In this document: piece by piece, positions 1,570 through 6,862 of the stretch
Position numbering within the stretch: position 1 is the first letter of the stretch
Layout: each line of letters starts with the position of its first letter
Virus record (IMG/VR): IMGVR_UViG_648276647_000011
Source: a virus
Lineage: Duplodnaviria > Heunggongvirae > Uroviricota > Caudoviricetes
Reading direction: 5' to 3' (one strand)
Length of the DNA stretch: 8,509 nt
The notes under the pieces: generated by a model
What the model was told of the DNA's origin: nothing
The model's input: the letters and a program-made list of their open reading frames with translations, nothing else
The model's database searches: none
Made by a program: the position numbers and the translations under genes

Positions 1570-1600
1570 AAAAAAAAGAAGCTCGCTAAAGCCAGCGAGC
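1570..1600 (-). terminator. intrinsic terminator oriented for minus-strand transcription
   Basis: Stem GCTCGCT (1581-1587), loop AAAGCC, stem AGCGAGC (1594-1600). On the + strand it is preceded by an A-run (1570-1578), which on the minus strand is a U-tract immediately 3' of the hairpin. There is no U-tract after the hairpin on the + strand. Confidence 0.45.
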
Positions 1601-1660
1601 CAACCAGTCAAGGATGTGCATTTAATGCACCTAAAGTCAGCAATAAGAAGTAATAGGCAG
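1570..1660 (-). ncRNA. candidate small RNA (~90 nt) on the minus strand in the alpA-icd intergenic region
   Basis: Minus-strand promoter-like elements: -35 TTGATT (1694..1689), 17-bp spacer, -10 CATAAT (1671..1666). An internal palindromic hairpin GTGCAT-TTA-ATGCAC lies at 1616-1630 and the terminator at 1570-1600. There is no minus-strand ORF here. Purely sequence-based prediction. Confidence 0.3.
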
Positions 1661-2016
1661 AAATGATTATGGCTTTTTTACTCTTTAAAATCAATCACTC
1701 AGCGCAAGTGAGCAAAAATAATGTGCAATATTGCTTGACTCGCTTTTTTGTCATGGCGTATCGTTTGCCCGCACCTCATAAAGCGGGTGCCGGGTTTAGC
1801 AGCCTGAACAATCAAGCGGGTAGCCGCTATATTTCCGTAATGCGGTTTTTTTGTGCCCGTAATTCCACCCTACCCCGTATTATGGCGGGGCGTAATGGGG
1901 GAGCCTTTGCGCTCGCTGGTTCCTTGATTGCCAGTCTGCTAACCCTGTTACGTCCCGCCACCATGTTTAGCAGCGTGCTGGCGAGACTCCGTAAACTTAA
2001 TCAAGGAGCCGCCAAA

Positions 2017-2190
2017 ATGGCTATATCAACACGCCCTGATTTTATCTGGCGCTTTATGCAGTGCCACGGTAAAAATATTCGCCTTCATACCGTTACCGCT
2101 GCCAGTGAGCGCGAAGCGCGCGCCATGCTTCCGGCATCCCGTCTGGTCTTTGTTGCCCGTATCCGTGTCCGGGAGGCGTGCCATGTTTAA
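2017..2190 (+). CDS. small protein, 57 aa, Icd-like (resembles the host cell-division-inhibitor Icd-like family common in P4-like prophages)
   Basis: ATG 2017 preceded by AGGAG (2004-2008). Sequence MAISTRPDFIWRFMQCHGKNIRLHTVTAASEREARAMLPASRLVFVARIRVREACHV; the ...ASEREAR...L.F.AR.RV motif is recalled from Icd-like proteins. The 5' part of the 175-aa track ORF (1663-2016) is treated as non-coding. Confidence 0.45.
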   Translation: MAISTRPDFIWRFMQCHGKNIRLHTVTAASEREARAMLPASRLVFVARIRVREACHV

Positions 2191-2367: not shown

Positions 2368-2556
2368 ATGTACGAGATTCATATTAAATTGCGTAATGTG
2401 GTAACAGGAGAGGAAGAAAACTTCCACACGATACGTAAATATAAATCAAAAGGAAAAGCGGCAAGGGACGCTATCAGGTATACGGAAGAAATTGCGCCGA
2501 AATATCAATTGCCAGAAGAAGAACTCACAGCATCAGTGGTAAAGGTGAAGAAATGA
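2368..2556 (+). CDS. hypothetical protein, 62 aa, lysine-rich
   Basis: ATG 2368 lies 2 nt after the upstream TAA (2363-2365), with GGAGGGG at 2357-2363. Track ORF 2338-2556 trimmed. Confidence 0.5.
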   Translation: MYEIHIKLRNVVTGEEENFHTIRKYKSKGKAARDAIRYTEEIAPKYQLPEEELTASVVKVKK

Positions 2557-2771
2557 AAAGCCGTTCAATATCCCGTAAAAATAATGGCAGTGGTGAAAAA
2601 CGTTTCTTTGTGTTGGGTTATGCCGTTAATAAACGTGGGTTAACCAAACATGCACATGCAACGGTATACGGAACGGGACCGGGCGAAGCCATACGCCGCG
2701 CAGCCGAAGGGCTGGAAGAGCTGGGAATGACACATTTCAAAGCGTTGAAGGTGACGCAGCTTTCCGCCTGA
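2553..2771 (+). CDS. hypothetical protein, 72 aa
   Basis: ATG 2553 overlaps the upstream stop as ATGA (translational coupling). GGTGAAG purine-rich SD upstream. Confidence 0.5.
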   Translation: MKSRSISRKNNGSGEKRFFVLGYAVNKRGLTKHAHATVYGTGPGEAIRRAAEGLEELGMTHFKALKVTQLSA

Positions 2772-2838
2772 TTCCCGAACTACCAACTGATAACTGAATT
2801 AAATTTATATTTCGATCTTAACGGGTCGGGGAGTTTTT

Positions 2839-3138
2839 ATGTCTGAAAATCAGAATATCCGCAATATATACAAAAAAGAATACGCTGGTTTTTTCACGGA
2901 AGATTCCATTGAGAATCTTGAAGATGTAATAAATGTTATTGCACTCCTTTCAGCATTGACAGGTGAAATTAATACCAGTGAGAGAATGCCAGTGCAAATT
3001 AATGAAATGGAATCATTAACTAACATTCTTTATCGGGAATTACGAGCGATTAAGTCAGGAATGCATACTTCTGGCGGAATTTTTTCATGGCATAGTGCTG
3101 AAACCGCCGGGATTGCCAAAGCAATAAGTAACGAGTAA
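2839..3138 (+). CDS. hypothetical protein, 99 aa; AT-rich orphan gene immediately upstream of the primase
   Basis: ATG 2839 preceded by GGGGAG (2825-2830). Separated from the upstream operon by an AT-rich 67-bp spacer and followed by a hairpin terminator. Composition is clearly lower G+C than flanking genes. No recognisable motif. Confidence 0.6.
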   Translation: MSENQNIRNIYKKEYAGFFTEDSIENLEDVINVIALLSALTGEINTSERMPVQINEMESLTNILYRELRAIKSGMHTSGGIFSWHSAETAGIAKAISNE

Positions 3139-3140
3139 TT

Positions 3141-3180
3141 AATAAAAACCCCACTGCAAAAGGTGCAGTGGGGTGGAGTT
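3141..3180. terminator. bidirectional-looking intrinsic terminator; stronger in minus orientation
   Basis: 10-bp GC-rich stem CCCCACTGCA (3149-3158) / TGCAGTGGGG (3164-3173) with loop AAAGG. On the minus strand it is followed directly by TTTTTATT (reverse complement of 3141-3148). On the + strand the T-run (3176-3179) is separated from the stem and interrupted. Confidence 0.55.
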
Positions 3181-3186
3181 TTATAT

Positions 3187-5856
3187 ATGAAATCTGACAT
3201 CAGAAAAGAGATTATTAACCGTCTTATCCGTGATTACAACTTCAAAGAAGAAAATAACTACCTCCGGTATGGTGTTTGTCCGCAATGTGGAAAGAAAGAG
3301 TTGTTTACCAGCCTTGAAAGGCCGTACATCGTACACTGTGGGCGCGAAAATAAATGCGGTACAGACCTGCTGACCAAAGAACTTTACCCGGATGTGTTTT
3401 CATCATGGTCAGATCGTTATATCAGCACGAAAGACGAGCCATATGCAGCGGCGGCAGCTTATCTTCAGGAAGCGCGCAATATTGCTGTGGGGCCACTGAA
3501 GGGCGCATTTACTCAGGAGCGATACCAGGACAAGGAAAACGGCGAACAGGCCGCTACTGTGCGTTTTACGCTGGCTGACGGCGTGTGGTGGGAGCGCATC
3601 ATAGACCGGCCGGAACGTTTCGCGCGTAAGGCGAATTTTTCCGGCAGCTACAAGGGGTTGTGGTGGGCTTATCCGGGAGCTGATTTAAGCAAGGCCAACG
3701 AAATCTGGATTTGTGAGGGCATCTTTGATGCCATCAGCCTTAACCAGAATGGCATTGCAGCCGTTTCTGTCATGTCTGCCGTGAATTATCCTGATAAGGC
3801 GCTGGAAGAACTGGCAAAGCTGTGCGGAGATAATCCCCGTCCGGTTATTGTGTGGGCGCTGGATAACGGGCGTGCGGGTGAGCGTTACGCGAAAAAACAT
3901 TCAGAACGCAGCGCCGAAGATGGCTGGAGAACGGCGGCGGCGTTACCGGGTAAAAACAGCAATAAACGCGACTGGAATGATTTACACGTCGCCGGAAAGC
4001 TGCGTGGCCATGATGTGAAAAGATACCGTCATTACGGTGATTTATTGCTGGCGAAATCTCCGAGAGATAAGGCGCTGATAATATTTTCCTTTCGTGAGCG
4101 GAAGGAATTTCATTTTACTTTTGATAACCGTGTTTTCTGGTTCAAACTGGACATTGAGCGCTATATGAAGGCTGTTGAGCGTGCCAAGAATGAGCGAAAT
4201 GTTGATGAGGATGAAGCGCGCAAAATTGCACTTAAGGAATCTGGTGCAGTAAAAGAAATCGCAAACTGTAACCCAGCGCCGCTTTATTACATTCGAAATA
4301 ATGACACGGATGAAGCATGGTATTACTTCCGTGTTACGTTCCCGGATGGTGCTACGGTGAAAAACACCTTTACATCAGGACAATTAACATCCTCATCTGA
4401 ATTTAAAAAACGCCTGTTACACGTGGCAAAAGGCGGTATTTATACTGGAACGACTACGCAGCTTGACGCATTAATAAAAAATGACCTTCCCGCAATAAAA
4501 GAGGTTATTGGTCAGGATTTTATCGGATACAACAAGGCGATTGGGGCATGGCTGTTTAATGATATTGCTGTTTACAAGGGAAAAACTTATGAAATCAATG
4601 ACGAGGATTATTTTGAAATTGATGGCATAAACGCAAAACCATTAAGCGAAAAACCCACATTACAGATTAACTACAAAAAACCGGATGAGTTTACAGAGTC
4701 TTGGGTGGAAGATCTCTGGCTGGCTTTTGGTGAAAAGGGAATTATTACCCTGGCTTTCTGGTTGGGCTCCCTGTTCAGCGAACAAATCCGAGATAAAGAA
4801 GAATCCTTCCCCTTCCTTGAAGTCACCGGGGAGCCCGGAACGGGTAAATCAACATTGATTGATTTTTGCTGGCGGTTGTGCGGTCGTGACAACTATGAAG
4901 GCGTTGATCCAACCAAAGGATCAGAGGCGGGCTGGAAGCGTACCTTTGGACAGGTCGCCGGATTACCTGTTGTTCTGATTGAAGCGGACCGGGGAGACAA
5001 TGCGCAAAAAAGAGGTGCGTTTGACTTCGATAACCTGAAAAGTCTCTATAACGGCGGTGGTATCGGCGTTCGTGGTGTTAAGGCCAACAATAACAACACC
5101 TATGACCCGGATTTTAAGGGCGCTATCGTGATTGCGCAGAATGCGCGGGTAAACGCCTCTCCGGCAATTATTGAGCGCCTGATACGTATATACACCGATA
5201 AAAAACGCCATTCACCTGATACCCGCCTGGCGGCGAGACGGCTGGAACTTTACCCCGTCGAGAAGGTATCTGGGTTTATTCACCGAGCGGTAAGTCAGGA
5301 ACGGGCGATTATGCAAACGTTCCTAGAAGTATCTCCAGCTGAAACGGAACGCCTTTGCGGATGCGAAAATATTCGCCATCCCCGCATCGCTAAAAATCAC
5401 GCACAACTTATCGCGCTGGTCAGAGCGCTGAAATGCGTTATTGATATCCCGGATGAATGGCTTGATGCCACATGTCTGGAACTGGAACAAATGGCAACAG
5501 CGCAGGTTAAAGCGGCGGCGGCTGATTTACCGGAAGTGATGGAGTTCTGGGAGGCGTTCGACTTCCTGGACGGCATAACAAAATACGGTGTAAACCACTA
5601 CGGCAAGGGATGCCGTGAGGGGATTGCTATCAGTATTCCGCAACTGGCACAGGCTGCCGCCATTCACCGCGTGGAGATCCGAACTGACCGCGAAATGATT
5701 GAGTTGCTCGGAGCCGGACGTTCCCGACCTTTGACAGGCCGCAAAACCATTCGTAGTGAGGTGTCCAGACAGGCAAACGCCGGAAGAGGGGTCGCCGAGG
5801 CCAGAGAGCCGGAAGTACTGAAATGCCGGATATTCAGTTACAAGGAGGGGCGCTAA
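3187..5856 (+). CDS. phage/plasmid primase-helicase of the P4 alpha type: N-terminal zinc ribbon, TOPRIM primase, P-loop NTPase (helicase)
   Basis: Long ORF. Cys cluster CPQCG...HCGRENKCG (nt 3277-3360). TOPRIM-like ICEGIFDA (nt 3709-3732) and LDNGRAGE. Walker A GEPGTGKST (nt 4828-4854). ATG 3187 with SD GGTGGAG (3172-3178) is preferred over the track GTG at 3163, which lies inside the terminator stem. Confidence 0.88.
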   Translation: MKSDIRKEIINRLIRDYNFKEENNYLRYGVCPQCGKKELFTSLERPYIVHCGRENKCGTDLLTKELYPDVFSSWSDRYISTKDEPYAAAAAYLQEARNIAVGPLKGAFTQERYQDKENGEQAATVRFTLADGVWWERIIDRPERFARKANFSGSYKGLWWAYPGADLSKANEIWICEGIFDAISLNQNGIAAVSVMSAVNYPDKALEELAKLCGDNPRPVIVWALDNGRAGERYAKKHSERSAEDGWRTAAALPGKNSNKRDWNDLHVAGKLRGHDVKRYRHYGDLLLAKSPRDKALIIFSFRERKEFHFTFDNRVFWFKLDIERYMKAVERAKNERNVDEDEARKIALKESGAVKEIANCNPAPLYYIRNNDTDEAWYYFRVTFPDGATVKNTFTSGQLTSSSEFKKRLLHVAKGGIYTGTTTQLDALIKNDLPAIKEVIGQDFIGYNKAIGAWLFNDIAVYKGKTYEINDEDYFEIDGINAKPLSEKPTLQINYKKPDEFTESWVEDLWLAFGEKGIITLAFWLGSLFSEQIRDKEESFPFLEVTGEPGTGKSTLIDFCWRLCGRDNYEGVDPTKGSEAGWKRTFGQVAGLPVVLIEADRGDNAQKRGAFDFDNLKSLYNGGGIGVRGVKANNNNTYDPDFKGAIVIAQNARVNASPAIIERLIRIYTDKKRHSPDTRLAARRLELYPVEKVSGFIHRAVSQERAIMQTFLEVSPAETERLCGCENIRHPRIAKNHAQLIALVRALKCVIDIPDEWLDATCLELEQMATAQVKAAAADLPEVMEFWEAFDFLDGITKYGVNHYGKGCREGIAISIPQLAQAAAIHRVEIRTDREMIELLGAGRSRPLTGRKTIRSEVSRQANAGRGVAEAREPEVLKCRIFSYKEGR

Positions 5857-5858
5857 AC

Positions 5859-6862
5859 ATGCCGATCAGAAAGATGCATGATGGGCGGTGGCTGCTCGAT
5901 ATCAGGCCATGCGGACGTAAAGGGAAGCGCATCAGAAGAATATTTGACAAAAAATCGATAGCTACAGCAACTGAACGGTACATCATAGCGAACGCCGAAA
6001 AGCGCGAGTTTATACAGGGCTATCGTGACCGGAGAACGCTTAGCGATTTACTGGAATTGTGGTGGGTCTATCACGGTCAGCACAGGCGAAAGGCAAACAC
6101 GGATAAACAGCAGCTTGGCAAAATTATTAATGAGCTTGGAGCTGACATGTTTGCGGTGGAACTCGACAAATTAAAAATCATTGCATGGCGATCGCAGAAA
6201 ATTGCAGAAGGATTAAAGCCGTCCTCAGCAAACAGATACATGAACAGATTATCGGGGATGTTTACAGCCCTGAAAAAGATCGGTTTGTGGGATGCAGAGC
6301 ATCCGGTTCGTGGTATTCCTGTTCTTTATGTAAAGCAGCGGGAAATGGCCTTTTTATCAAAAAACGAGGTCACATTGTTGCTTGACGGGCTGAATGGAGA
6401 TCAACGAAGGGTTGCGCTCTTGTGTCTTTGTACCGGAGCCCGCTGGAGTGAGGCCAGCAGATTGTATGGAGAGCAAATAGTTCATAACAGAATAACGTTT
6501 CTGGAAACCAAAAACGGTAGAAAAAGAACGGTGCCTGTGTCGCAGGAAATATGCGATGCCGTAAAAACAAAAGAAACCGGGCGACTGTTTGATGTGAAGT
6601 ACAGAGAGTTTTGCCGGGCATTAAAAAAATAAAACCCGATTTACCGAGGGGGCAGGCTGCGCATGTATTGCGGCATACATTCGCCAGTCACTTTGTGATG
6701 AACGGTGGCAACATTCTTGCGCTACAAAAAATCCTTGGGCATGCGACAATTCAGCAGACTATGGCATACGCACATTTTGCACCGGATTATCTGGCAGATG
6801 CCATGAGATTTAACCCGGTAGCCAACATAGTGATCACCGAAGAAAAAGAGCCAGCAGAGTAA
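5859..6862 (+). pseudogene. int: tyrosine integrase, P2 Int-like, interrupted by a single-base frameshift at an A7 run (6623-6629); may be a pseudogene, a sequencing error or a recoding site
   Basis: Two consecutive ORFs (frame 0 5859-6632; frame 2 6611-6862) that together align without gaps to recalled P2 integrase (e.g. KPSSANRYMNRLSGMFTAL, CTGARWSEASRL, IKPDLPRGQAAHVLRHTFASHF, QTMAYAHFAPDY). Box II HxxR and the presumed catalytic Tyr (nt 6767-6769) are only in the second frame. ATG 5859 lies 2 nt after the primase stop, with AGGAGGGG at 5843-5850. Confidence 0.85.

Follow-up and report, generated by a model that had tools for sequence, protein, structure and literature searches.

The junction between orf99 and the primase gene of this element raises the question of what a strong hairpin does immediately in front of the start codon of a replication gene, and on which strand it acts. 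The original prediction placed a terminator of minus polarity in this gap and an antisense promoter facing it inside the first primase codons, which would together make a short RNA over the ribosome-binding site and the start codon of the primase. We have followed this proposal through the window, that is, the whole analysed stretch of 8,509 nucleotides, and through its relatives, which were drawn from E. coli genome matches, IMG/VR, encoding contigs and one metagenome scan. Lineages of relatives are referred to by L numbers.

Genes around the primase start

The primase gene and its flanks form part of a P4-like satellite prophage of Escherichia. The features of the junction are collected in Table 1. 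The primase matches Pfam Toprim_2 and Toprim_3 as well as PHROG 1139, DNA primase (E=6e-299), and its start at ATG 3187 is the start annotated by PGAP in relatives. The label alpha, under which the gene had been introduced, proves to be a misnomer. A BLASTP comparison with P4 alpha gives only short matches in the toprim and P-loop regions (31 bits), and a tblastn search of phages leads to the primases of phiCTX, RSY1, Smp131 and ESSI2, not to that of P4. The protein is a phiCTX/RSY1-type toprim primase, and its similarity to P4 alpha is only local.

For orf99 no match was found in Pfam or PHROG and no similarity to P4 epsilon or P4 cnr. Its counterparts in E. coli relatives are labelled hypothetical protein, and among close relatives it is the most variable segment. 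The gap of 48 nt between orf99 and the primase gene is filled by a perfect 11-bp hairpin. Positions 3139-3215 of this junction recur without change in E. coli strains such as 600468, ST131 2019_APHA and MIN10. With the stem just 12 nt from the ATG, there is no room for a promoter of the primase's own, and thus the primase is read within a plus-strand operon. Further upstream in the same element, isrK (1771-1852) and C4 (1878-1965) are identified by Rfam, and a scan of five relatives found both in four. Control of the same operon by small RNAs is therefore already a feature of the element.

Table 1. Features at the junction of orf99 and the primase gene, in positions of the window
Feature	Position	Strand	Remarks
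orf99	2839..3138	+	upstream co-directional gene, from the ORF list; TAA stop 3136-3138
U-tract of the minus-strand terminator	3139..3147	-	minus strand UUUUUAUUA; A-run on the plus strand
Predicted cis-antisense RNA	3141..3204	-	about 62 nt; ends inferred from promoter and terminator positions
Terminator hairpin	3148..3174	-	11-bp perfect stem, 7 G:C pairs, 5-nt loop
Shine-Dalgarno GGAG of the primase	3175-3178	+	8 nt 5' of the ATG; between the stem and the plus-strand T-run
Primase/helicase gene	3187..5856	+	889 aa; toprim domain and P-loop domain
Candidate antisense -10 AATAAT	3211..3216	-	from the Ile-Ile codons ATT ATT
Candidate antisense -35 TTGTAA	3234..3239	-	17 nt from the -10; on conserved D-Y-N codons
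Pairing-module allele			TGGAGTTTT, with KSDIR
Pairing-module allele			GGGGGATTT, with KHNTR
Pairing-module allele			GAGAGGATTT, with KPDTR

Polarity and conservation of the hairpin

The hairpin that had been located at 3149-3173 is present, and the additional pair A3148:T3174 extends its stem to the full 11 bp. The 5' arm (3149-3158, CCCCACTGCA) and the 3' arm (3164-3173, TGCAGTGGGG) enclose the loop AAAGG. Its folding energy is about -18.4 kcal/mol, and it is not a chance structure: the folding z is about -5 on either strand and none of 200 shuffles folds as well. The strands differ in what follows the stem. On the minus strand, TTTTTATTAAT is found directly 3' of the stem at an offset of 0 nt. 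On the plus strand, (T)GGAGTTTTAT comes after the stem; the T-run begins 5 nt past the stem, and the Shine-Dalgarno GGAG parts the two. The tail of the plus-strand RNA thus reads (U)GGAGUUUUAU, with no U-tract directly 3' of the stem. The terminator discriminant d is +36 on the minus strand and -21 on the plus strand, and only a lax scanner that allows a 2-nt offset lists the hairpin on the plus strand. By sequence criteria, the hairpin qualifies as a canonical intrinsic terminator for minus-strand transcription alone. The Shine-Dalgarno sequence had been described as overlapping the 3' arm. This holds for the longer motif GGTGGAG, which overlaps by 2-3 nt, but the core GGAG lies just outside the stem.

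The same polarity is observed among the relatives. A minus-polarity terminator occurs at the same spot in 37 of 87 distinct primase starts, and a plus-polarity terminator in none of the 87. The order A-run, GC hairpin, Shine-Dalgarno sequence, T-rich spacer and ATG is shared across lineages, with the Shine-Dalgarno sequence directly 3' of the stem in every lineage compared. In all 13 representatives of terminator-bearing lineages the A-run abuts the hairpin, so that 5-7 of the first 8 nt in the minus-strand tail are T. The minus d lies between +5 and +41 in these 13, and the plus d is below zero in 12 of them. The stems themselves comprise at least eight different sequences, and unrelated stems are found at the same place in other lineages. 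Compensatory changes are seen in L027, where an A:T pair has become G:C, and in L118, where two pairs are altered on both sides. Stems were compared directly, as MAFFT and RNAalifold over all hairpin types misaligned the non-homologous stems and returned a meaningless 4-pair consensus. With 37 distinct relatives, this variety of stems, the compensatory changes and no case of plus polarity, the minus-polarity terminator of the original prediction is well backed.

A perfect 11-bp palindrome-like repeat beside a start codon could also be taken for a protein-binding site at the DNA level, such as an operator or a recombination site, rather than for an RNA structure. We regard this as highly improbable. 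The stem is swapped wholesale between lineages while its complementarity, its GC-richness and the flanking A-run are kept, and close relatives carry compensatory double changes. Wholesale replacement together with compensation is the pattern of an RNA hairpin and not of a sequence-specific protein site.

Another alternative assigns the hairpin a role in plus-strand mRNA, either as a weak attenuator between orf99 and the primase or as a processing or stability element. It could then be an RNase E or RNase III site, a protective 3' hairpin of the orf99 message or a 5' hairpin of the primase message. Such a role would agree with the equal stability of the hairpin in plus-strand RNA, with the plus-strand listing by the lax scanner and with the constant position of the hairpin directly against the Shine-Dalgarno sequence; moreover, 2-4 U follow the stem in some relatives, and L106 reaches a plus d of +1. 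However, a terminator on the plus strand is found nowhere among the 87 starts, and in type B relatives not a single U adjoins the stem. A plus-strand role also leaves the constant A-run 5' of the stem unexplained, which marks a U-tract on the opposite strand. These observations make a plus-strand function of the hairpin improbable. The related suggestion, that the hairpin would partly terminate readthrough from orf99, finds little favour in the window, where the plus-strand tail begins with GGAG and d is strongly negative.

The minus strand also holds an open reading frame of 56 aa (3200..3030). It was rejected as a product, since it would cross the terminator and the alleles do not share its ATG.

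The candidate antisense promoter

The promoter-like pair TTGTAA and AATAAT with its 17-nt spacer is found exactly as it had been described. It matches the consensus at 9 of 12 positions and has the features of sigma-70 hexamers and spacing, namely A2 and T6 in the -10, at least 4 of 6 matches in the -35 and a spacer of 16-18 nt. The window holds 15 sites with at least 9 of 12 matches, and 14.4 are expected from shuffles; by itself, the candidate promoter in this window is not above chance. A weighted matrix ranks it fifth on the minus strand of the window and second on the antisense strand of the primase gene. An extended -10 is absent. Downstream of the -10, CTCTTTTCT offers no purine at +5 to +9 and the first one at +10, an unfavourable start region, and relatives carry G at +5 to +8. 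Judged by its sequence, the version in the window is the weakest of the candidate promoters among the relatives, with its AATAAT, its pyrimidine-only start region and a synonymous recoding result that is not significant for the window alone (p=0.28).

The relatives give a stronger signal. The -10 site reads TATAAT in eight diverged satellite lineages (L028, L029, L120, L125, L038, L042, L104 and L106), TACAAT in L126, TATGAT in L102, L103 and L119, and a broken TGTAAT in L031. In most of the TATAAT lineages, no or hardly any promoter-like site on the entire antisense strand of the 2.7-kb gene scores better, and an independent scanner, run on both strands of 6 kb from L028 and 5.4 kb from L104, placed it at the top of each. 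Across the 87 starts, terminator and promoter occur together in 26, the terminator only in 11, the promoter only in 1 and neither in 49. In the tree, loss of the T-run terminator in two satellite lineages goes along with promoters weaker than those of their sisters, with scores of 6.9 in L030 against 14 in L104 and of about 6 in L105/L107 against 10 in L106. Synonymous recoding was applied to 13 terminator-bearing satellite lineages, and the real codons score above random ones (p=0.018-0.42, median 0.10); the combined Fisher p is about 6e-5, a value that overstates independence because the lineages are related. For lineages without the terminator the Fisher value is 0.43. The recurrence of TATAAT in diverged satellites, its covariation with the terminator and the bias at synonymous sites speak for the candidate promoter site that had been put forward.

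Much of the promoter score nevertheless follows from the protein sequence, since random recodings of the motif E-I-I-x-R-L-x-x-D-[YF] already score 6-8.7. The D-[YF]-x-F motif accounts in part for the -35, as TTCAAA is read there in phages that lack the terminator, too. This leads to the main rival explanation, in which the minus terminator is real but serves as an insulator only. It would guard the early/immunity operon from stray antisense transcription of the primase gene, arising anywhere in this AT-rich gene or beyond, and TTGTAA-17-AATAAT would be a by-product of the codons for E-I-I...D-Y-N, with no dedicated RNA. The high scores of the amino-acid motif alone, the chance level of the window promoter and its synonymous p all suit this explanation. 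Deeper antisense promoter-like sites suit it as well, for example TTGCCA-18-TAAATT at 4429..4400, which has a counterpart at the same gene position in L033. In addition, the L032 group, which consists of phage-size contigs, keeps the minus terminator and has no convincing promoter nearby. Together with the broken -10 of L031, this means that the terminator can persist without a good local promoter. On the other side, the synonymous bias toward a promoter is seen only in terminator-bearing satellites, no promoter-like match ranks above the site in L028 and L104, and promoter strength drops with terminator loss in both sister comparisons. An operon or element border would also be a more natural place for an insulator than a position 12 nt from a start codon. 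We therefore consider a pure insulator unlikely, although it is a serious competitor.

Nucleotide diversity among close E. coli relatives was also inspected. Near the hexamers the synonymous diversity, taken at third positions, is 0.06-0.10, no reduction from the gene mean of 0.104. A 30-nt sliding profile of the diversity is low at 3198-3257 (0.016-0.03), and other stretches are equally quiet.

A predicted antisense RNA and its known counterparts

Weighing these observations, we lean slightly towards reading the locus, from its sequence, as a cis-antisense RNA unit of the sar/RNA-OUT type that would damp primase translation. A sigma-70-like promoter in primase codons 9-18 would face the minus-strand terminator. 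RNA polymerase would start near 3204 on the minus strand and stop near 3141-3145, just past the orf99 stop codon. The predicted RNA folds into one small hairpin at the 5' side, a tail that stays single-stranded, and the terminator. Its 5' part of about 30 nt is complementary to the Shine-Dalgarno sequence, the AUG and primase codons 1-6, and its 3' end consists of the terminator hairpin and the U-tail. For the other lineages, a hand estimate from offsets and distances gives a length of 58-65 nt. The single-stranded 5' tail would pair perfectly with the Shine-Dalgarno sequence, the AUG and codons 2-6 of the primase mRNA. Such pairing would block 30S binding and/or create an RNase III substrate, and less primase would be made. 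The dose of the antisense gene would go up with the copy number of the element, and strong plus-strand transcription would run into the weak antisense promoter. With these two properties the unit would damp leaky or residual primase and provide negative feedback on satellite replication. By analogy, the predicted RNA may contribute to copy-number control. No Rfam family matched at the predicted antisense locus at E<=1, and our literature search found no report of an antisense RNA at a satellite primase.

The predicted RNA of about 60 nt over the Shine-Dalgarno sequence and the AUG has the same layout as the annotated sar unit of phage P22. In the P22 record, arc (1862-2023, +) is followed by sar (2022-2091, -) with its terminator (2022-2059, -), ant begins at 2092 (+) and Psar lies at 2098-2126 (-). 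Both loci have two co-directional genes with a short intercistronic gap, a minus-polarity terminator in the gap that abuts the upstream stop codon, an antisense promoter within the first codons of the downstream gene, and an RNA of 60-70 nt (70 nt for sar, predicted here) over the ribosome-binding site of that gene. This layout is annotated and experimentally known in P22, whereas here the geometry is present at the level of sequence prediction. The two RNAs have no homology in sequence or structure, and at E<=1 the Rfam sar model RF00262, which scores 97.8 bits on the P22 control, gave no hit in the window and none in five relatives. The target in P22 is the antirepressor and here it would be the primase. 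Furthermore, sar contains two stem-loops and has its 5' end 1 nt ahead of the ATG, while the predicted RNA has one main hairpin and covers codons 1-6 too. Psar has an extended -10 (TGcTATACT, with the TG one base upstream of the -10), unlike the candidate promoter here.

In IS10/Tn10, the RNA-OUT promoter in the coding start reads outward over the ribosome-binding site and start codon of tnp, and the antisense RNA of about 70 nt has a dose that scales with copy number (multicopy inhibition). The outward promoter at the coding start and the short antisense RNA over the ribosome-binding site and AUG, as predicted here, are alike. RNA-OUT is however one long stem-loop, of which the loop pairs with the 5' end of RNA-IN. 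In the predicted unit the pairing region would be the single-stranded 5' tail, the hairpin would be the terminator, and the target mRNA would be internal to a polycistronic transcript. CopA of R1 and RNA I of ColE1 may share the logic of a constitutive, replicon-made short antisense RNA that limits a replication function according to copy number, and Rfam gave no match that would indicate homology. The leader with which CopA pairs (CopT) lies far upstream of repA, and CopA works through a leader peptide; the target of ColE1 RNA I is a primer and not an mRNA. Of the two comparisons made in the original prediction, the one with RNA-OUT is apt and, along with P22 sar, offers the closer architecture; that with CopA is loose, since CopA targets the leader and not the ribosome-binding site of the rep gene.

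The immunity RNAs C4 (CI) and isrK (seqA) of the P4/P1 type are likewise small RNAs on the same operon of the element. They derive from the operon leader by processing, are sense-strand RNAs and act on upstream targets, whereas the predicted unit occupies the primase start on the other strand. No such unit exists in P4 itself, where the cnr-alpha gap measures 14 nt and contains no hairpin.

The predicted pairing module of about 30 nt (Shine-Dalgarno sequence and codons 2-6, 3175-3204) exists in a few linked alleles (Table 1). A more far-reaching proposal, which we treat as speculative and rather doubtful, would be a layered circuit made of RNAs only. In addition to isrK and C4, it would comprise two short minus-strand RNAs, 1659->1572 upstream of the immunity region and 3204->3141, each with its own strong backward terminator, and the pairing alleles would be replication-incompatibility specificities between co-resident satellites. 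Two copies of the element in one genome were found in only 2-3 independent genomes. The idea that the pairing region (3168-3207) is a diversity hot-spot was discarded: at 0.11-0.14, its diversity hardly exceeds the mean of 0.10 and does not come near that of orf99 (up to 0.47). The region resembles the margin of the mosaic orf99 module.

By analogy, the predicted unit resembles a known kind of regulator, represented by P22 sar and IS10 RNA-OUT, and would introduce no new principle. P4-like satellites are widespread in enterobacteria, and the clade considered here includes isolates of Escherichia, Yersinia, Salmonella and Pectobacterium as well as unassigned metagenomic contigs. A minus-only terminator 10-17 nt before an ATG in a one-directional operon may serve as a search signature for similar units. 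If the RNA is real, it would represent a previously undescribed antisense control of a replication gene in a large satellite clade, acting on top of the known C4/isrK immunity RNAs. Besides its use on an antirepressor, the sar-type module would then have been put to use on a replication gene too.

The element and the gap ahead of the primase

The window, a P4-like satellite prophage of Escherichia, has a segment (2500-4000) that matches E. coli chromosomal elements over its full length at up to 98.5% identity, and its primase is 98% identical to the counterpart on an 8.5-kb IMG/VR contig. Nearly all sizeable ORFs are carried on the plus strand. The original prediction had named the primase gene alpha, but it encodes a toprim primase of PHROG 1139 with phage relatives in the phiCTX, RSY1, Smp131 and ESSI2 primases, and its likeness to P4 alpha is limited to short toprim and P-loop matches. 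The upstream gene orf99 matches no family and resembles neither P4 epsilon nor P4 cnr. A Salmonella transposon-library paper (PMC3632133) confirms isrK and C4 as the counterparts of P4 seqA and CI RNA. The top-scoring plus-strand promoter of the window lies just ahead of these two RNAs. Both are contained in an ORF annotated as 'Icd-like' in relatives; the C4 match terminates in ...CCACCAUG at 1965, so translation of this ORF probably begins at the in-frame ATG at 1963.

Features of the window around the primase start and the immunity region
Feature	Position	Strand	Remark
350-aa ORF		plus	
AlpA-type HTH gene		plus	
Second backward unit	1572-1694	minus	within one-directional operon
Its terminator	1601..1580	minus	strong, 9 bp, tail TCTTTTTTTT; in gap between AlpA-like gene and immunity region
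Its promoter-like pair	1694..1666	minus	TTGATT-17-CATAAT
'Icd-like' ORF	1663-2190		
Main promoter	1735-1764	plus	TTGACT-18-TATCGT
isrK	1771-1852		Rfam match, immunity region
C4	1878-1965		Rfam match, immunity region
Several small ORFs			listed between immunity region and orf99
orf99	2839-3138	plus	closes with TAA
A-run	3139-3147		
Hairpin	3148-3174		11-bp perfect stem, loop AAAGG
GGAG	3175-3178		
TTTTATAT			between GGAG and ATG
Primase	ATG 3187	plus	889 aa
Candidate antisense promoter	3239..3211	minus	TTGTAA-17-AATAAT
Promoter-like pair within primase	4400-4429	minus	TTGCCA-18-TAAATT
Second integrase-like gene	5859-6862		after primase; frameshifted near 6611-6632

The relative L001 has an intact integrase-like protein of 334 aa, whose residues 1-257 and 255-334 fall into two overlapping window frames at 98-99% identity; the split marks a pseudogene or else a sequencing error. 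In the Yersinia locus L027, a hok/gef-family gene (8904-9197, minus strand) lies downstream of primase and integrase, with an Rfam sok match below threshold (47 bits; gathering score 59). Across otherwise near-identical elements (L001-L024, L110-L121), the SD spacer and primase codons 2-6 (window 3170-3204) come in a few linked alleles: TGGAGTTTT with KSDIR, GGGGGATTT with either KHNTR or KNNTR, and GAGAGGATTT with KPDTR. L008, L009 and L021 carry recombinant combinations of these alleles with the orf99 end, and past this region diversity falls sharply at about 3200.

A minus-polarity terminator at the primase start

The orf99-primase gap of 48 nt is wholly occupied, and all features of the original prediction, hairpin and promoter-like pair, are present where it had placed them. 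The hairpin folds much more stably than shuffled controls (z about -5; 0/200 shuffles fold as well). Its predicted minus polarity is borne out: UUUUUAUUA follows immediately 3' of the stem on the minus strand and (U)GGAGUUUU on the plus strand, and the terminator discriminant is +36 for minus and -21 for plus.

The same polarity is kept in relatives. Primase starts were gathered from E. coli genomes, IMG/VR, contigs with intermediate homologues and one metagenome scan, and a hairpin was counted when it met terminator criteria within 75 nt of the ATG. A minus-strand terminator is found in 37 of the 87 distinct starts, and a plus-strand one, under the same criteria, in 0/87. The stem is CCCCACTGCA in the window, CCCCCCTGTA in 'type B' E. 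coli elements and TCCCCGCTGCA in Yersinia, with a single compensatory change from A:T to G:C; in L118, where the protein is 95% identical, two pairs are altered on both sides (CCCCACCGT/ACGGTGGGG). Other stems are AGCGCCG with varying loops (Salmonella contigs L028 and L031, Pectobacterium contig L106, several unassigned contigs), AGCGCCC/GGGCGCT (L038) and AGCGCCGT (L104). Among 13 lineage representatives, the minus discriminant is positive in all (+5 to +41) and the plus discriminant negative in 12, with +1 in L106. The SD directly follows the stem in every case and thereby spoils the plus-strand U-tract. The terminator call is strongly supported, and its minus polarity is well established at the sequence level.

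In L018, L019 and L113, G replaces T in the 5' arm of the window-type hairpin (CCCCACGGCA), disrupting one internal pair on both strands; the stem is thus not absolutely invariant. In L012 (990-1010; E. coli E92/E94), IS903B is inserted exactly at the primase ATG site, right after ...GGAGTTTTATAT, sparing hairpin and SD and severing the primase gene.

The candidate antisense promoter and the coding constraint

The predicted promoter pair is present, but such sites are at chance level in the window (15 observed vs 14.4 expected), so the pair alone is unremarkable. It ranks second on the primase antisense strand by weighted matrix, and its start region holds no purine at the usual distance. In most of the lineages compared, the site is the best or near-best promoter-like match on the entire antisense strand of the gene, and a second, independent scanner places it top in 6 kb (L028) and 5.4 kb (L104) on both strands. 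The spacer is 17 nt throughout. The -10 is AATAAT in Escherichia and Yersinia elements, TATAAT (ATT ATA) in diverged satellites of 52-77% protein identity (L028, L029, L120, L125, L038, L042, L104, L106), TACAAT in L126, where Ile has changed to Val, and TATGAT in L102/L103/L119; only in L031 is it broken (TGTAAT).

The -10 lies on the codons for E-I-I and the -35 on D-[YF]-x-F; in phage relatives that lack the hairpin, V-V or similar codons are found and a -10 is absent. When the 12 codons were randomly recoded with the codon usage of each gene, the amino-acid motif by itself yielded fair promoter scores of 6-8.7; the -35 above all stems largely from the protein motif. Across the 13 satellite lineages that bear the terminator, the real codons always fall in the upper part of the recoded distribution (p = 0.018-0.42, median 0.10, Fisher 6e-5, assuming an independence of lineages that is only partly true). 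Under the same assumption, lineages without the terminator (Fisher 0.43) and the phage-size group (Fisher 0.33) look random; the window itself gives p = 0.28. A neighbour-joining tree groups the terminator-bearing lineages into a single clade, within which L030, L105/L107 and L043 have lost the terminator; in the two satellite cases of loss the promoter also scores below that of the sister lineage (6.9 vs 14 and about 6 vs 10).

Phage-size contigs (L032-L041, L059, L122-L124; 20-38 kb) with a related primase of 52% identity have a minus-polarity terminator at the equivalent position (AGCACACAA, 19-nt loop, TTGTGTGCT, tail TTTTTATTT) and no convincing antisense promoter within the first 70 nt. 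This retention of the terminator without a convincing local promoter in the L032 group counts against an antisense RNA.

The top-scoring promoter-like pair on the primase antisense strand, TTGCCA-18-TAAATT, recurs in the 52%-identical L033 at the equivalent gene position (ATG+1210 to +1239) and may follow from the conservation of a protein motif. The second backward unit is predicted to give a ~88-nt RNA divergent from the main plus promoter; it has no Rfam match. L028 (Salmonella, 2376-2580) shows the same arrangement, with a terminator at 2409..2384 (T8 tail) and a promoter TTTACA-16-TATTAT with TG.

A putative antisense RNA over the primase start

A short cis-antisense RNA is the best-supported reading, and a plausible one. 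It would extend on the minus strand from about 3204 to about 3141, with a single-stranded 5' tail of ~30 nt pairing with the primase mRNA at its SD, AUG and codons 2-6, and would end 3' in the terminator hairpin and U-tail. The primase must be transcribed by read-through from upstream, since no promoter room is left after the hairpin. Sequence and comparison establish the geometry, the terminator polarity and the conservation of both; we infer that the promoter is active and its RNA accumulates, either blocking translation or triggering cleavage. Comparison adds support to this putative antisense RNA, whose case is weakest in this very window.

The same layout is found in P22 sar, where arc (plus) is followed by the sar terminator (minus), the 70-nt sar RNA (minus) and the ant ATG, with Psar within the first ant codons as the candidate promoter is within the primase codons. 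The two units are not homologous: the Rfam sar model matches P22 and nothing in the window or five relatives, and other Rfam families give no match at this site at E<=1. No counterpart exists in P4, where the gap between cnr and alpha is 14 nt. We found no paper that describes an antisense RNA at the primase of a satellite. Of the CopA-like or RNA-OUT-like architecture originally proposed, the outward-promoter logic of IS10 RNA-OUT applies, and CopA is a functional analogy only. By analogy alone, the RNA may serve copy-number feedback of the satellite.
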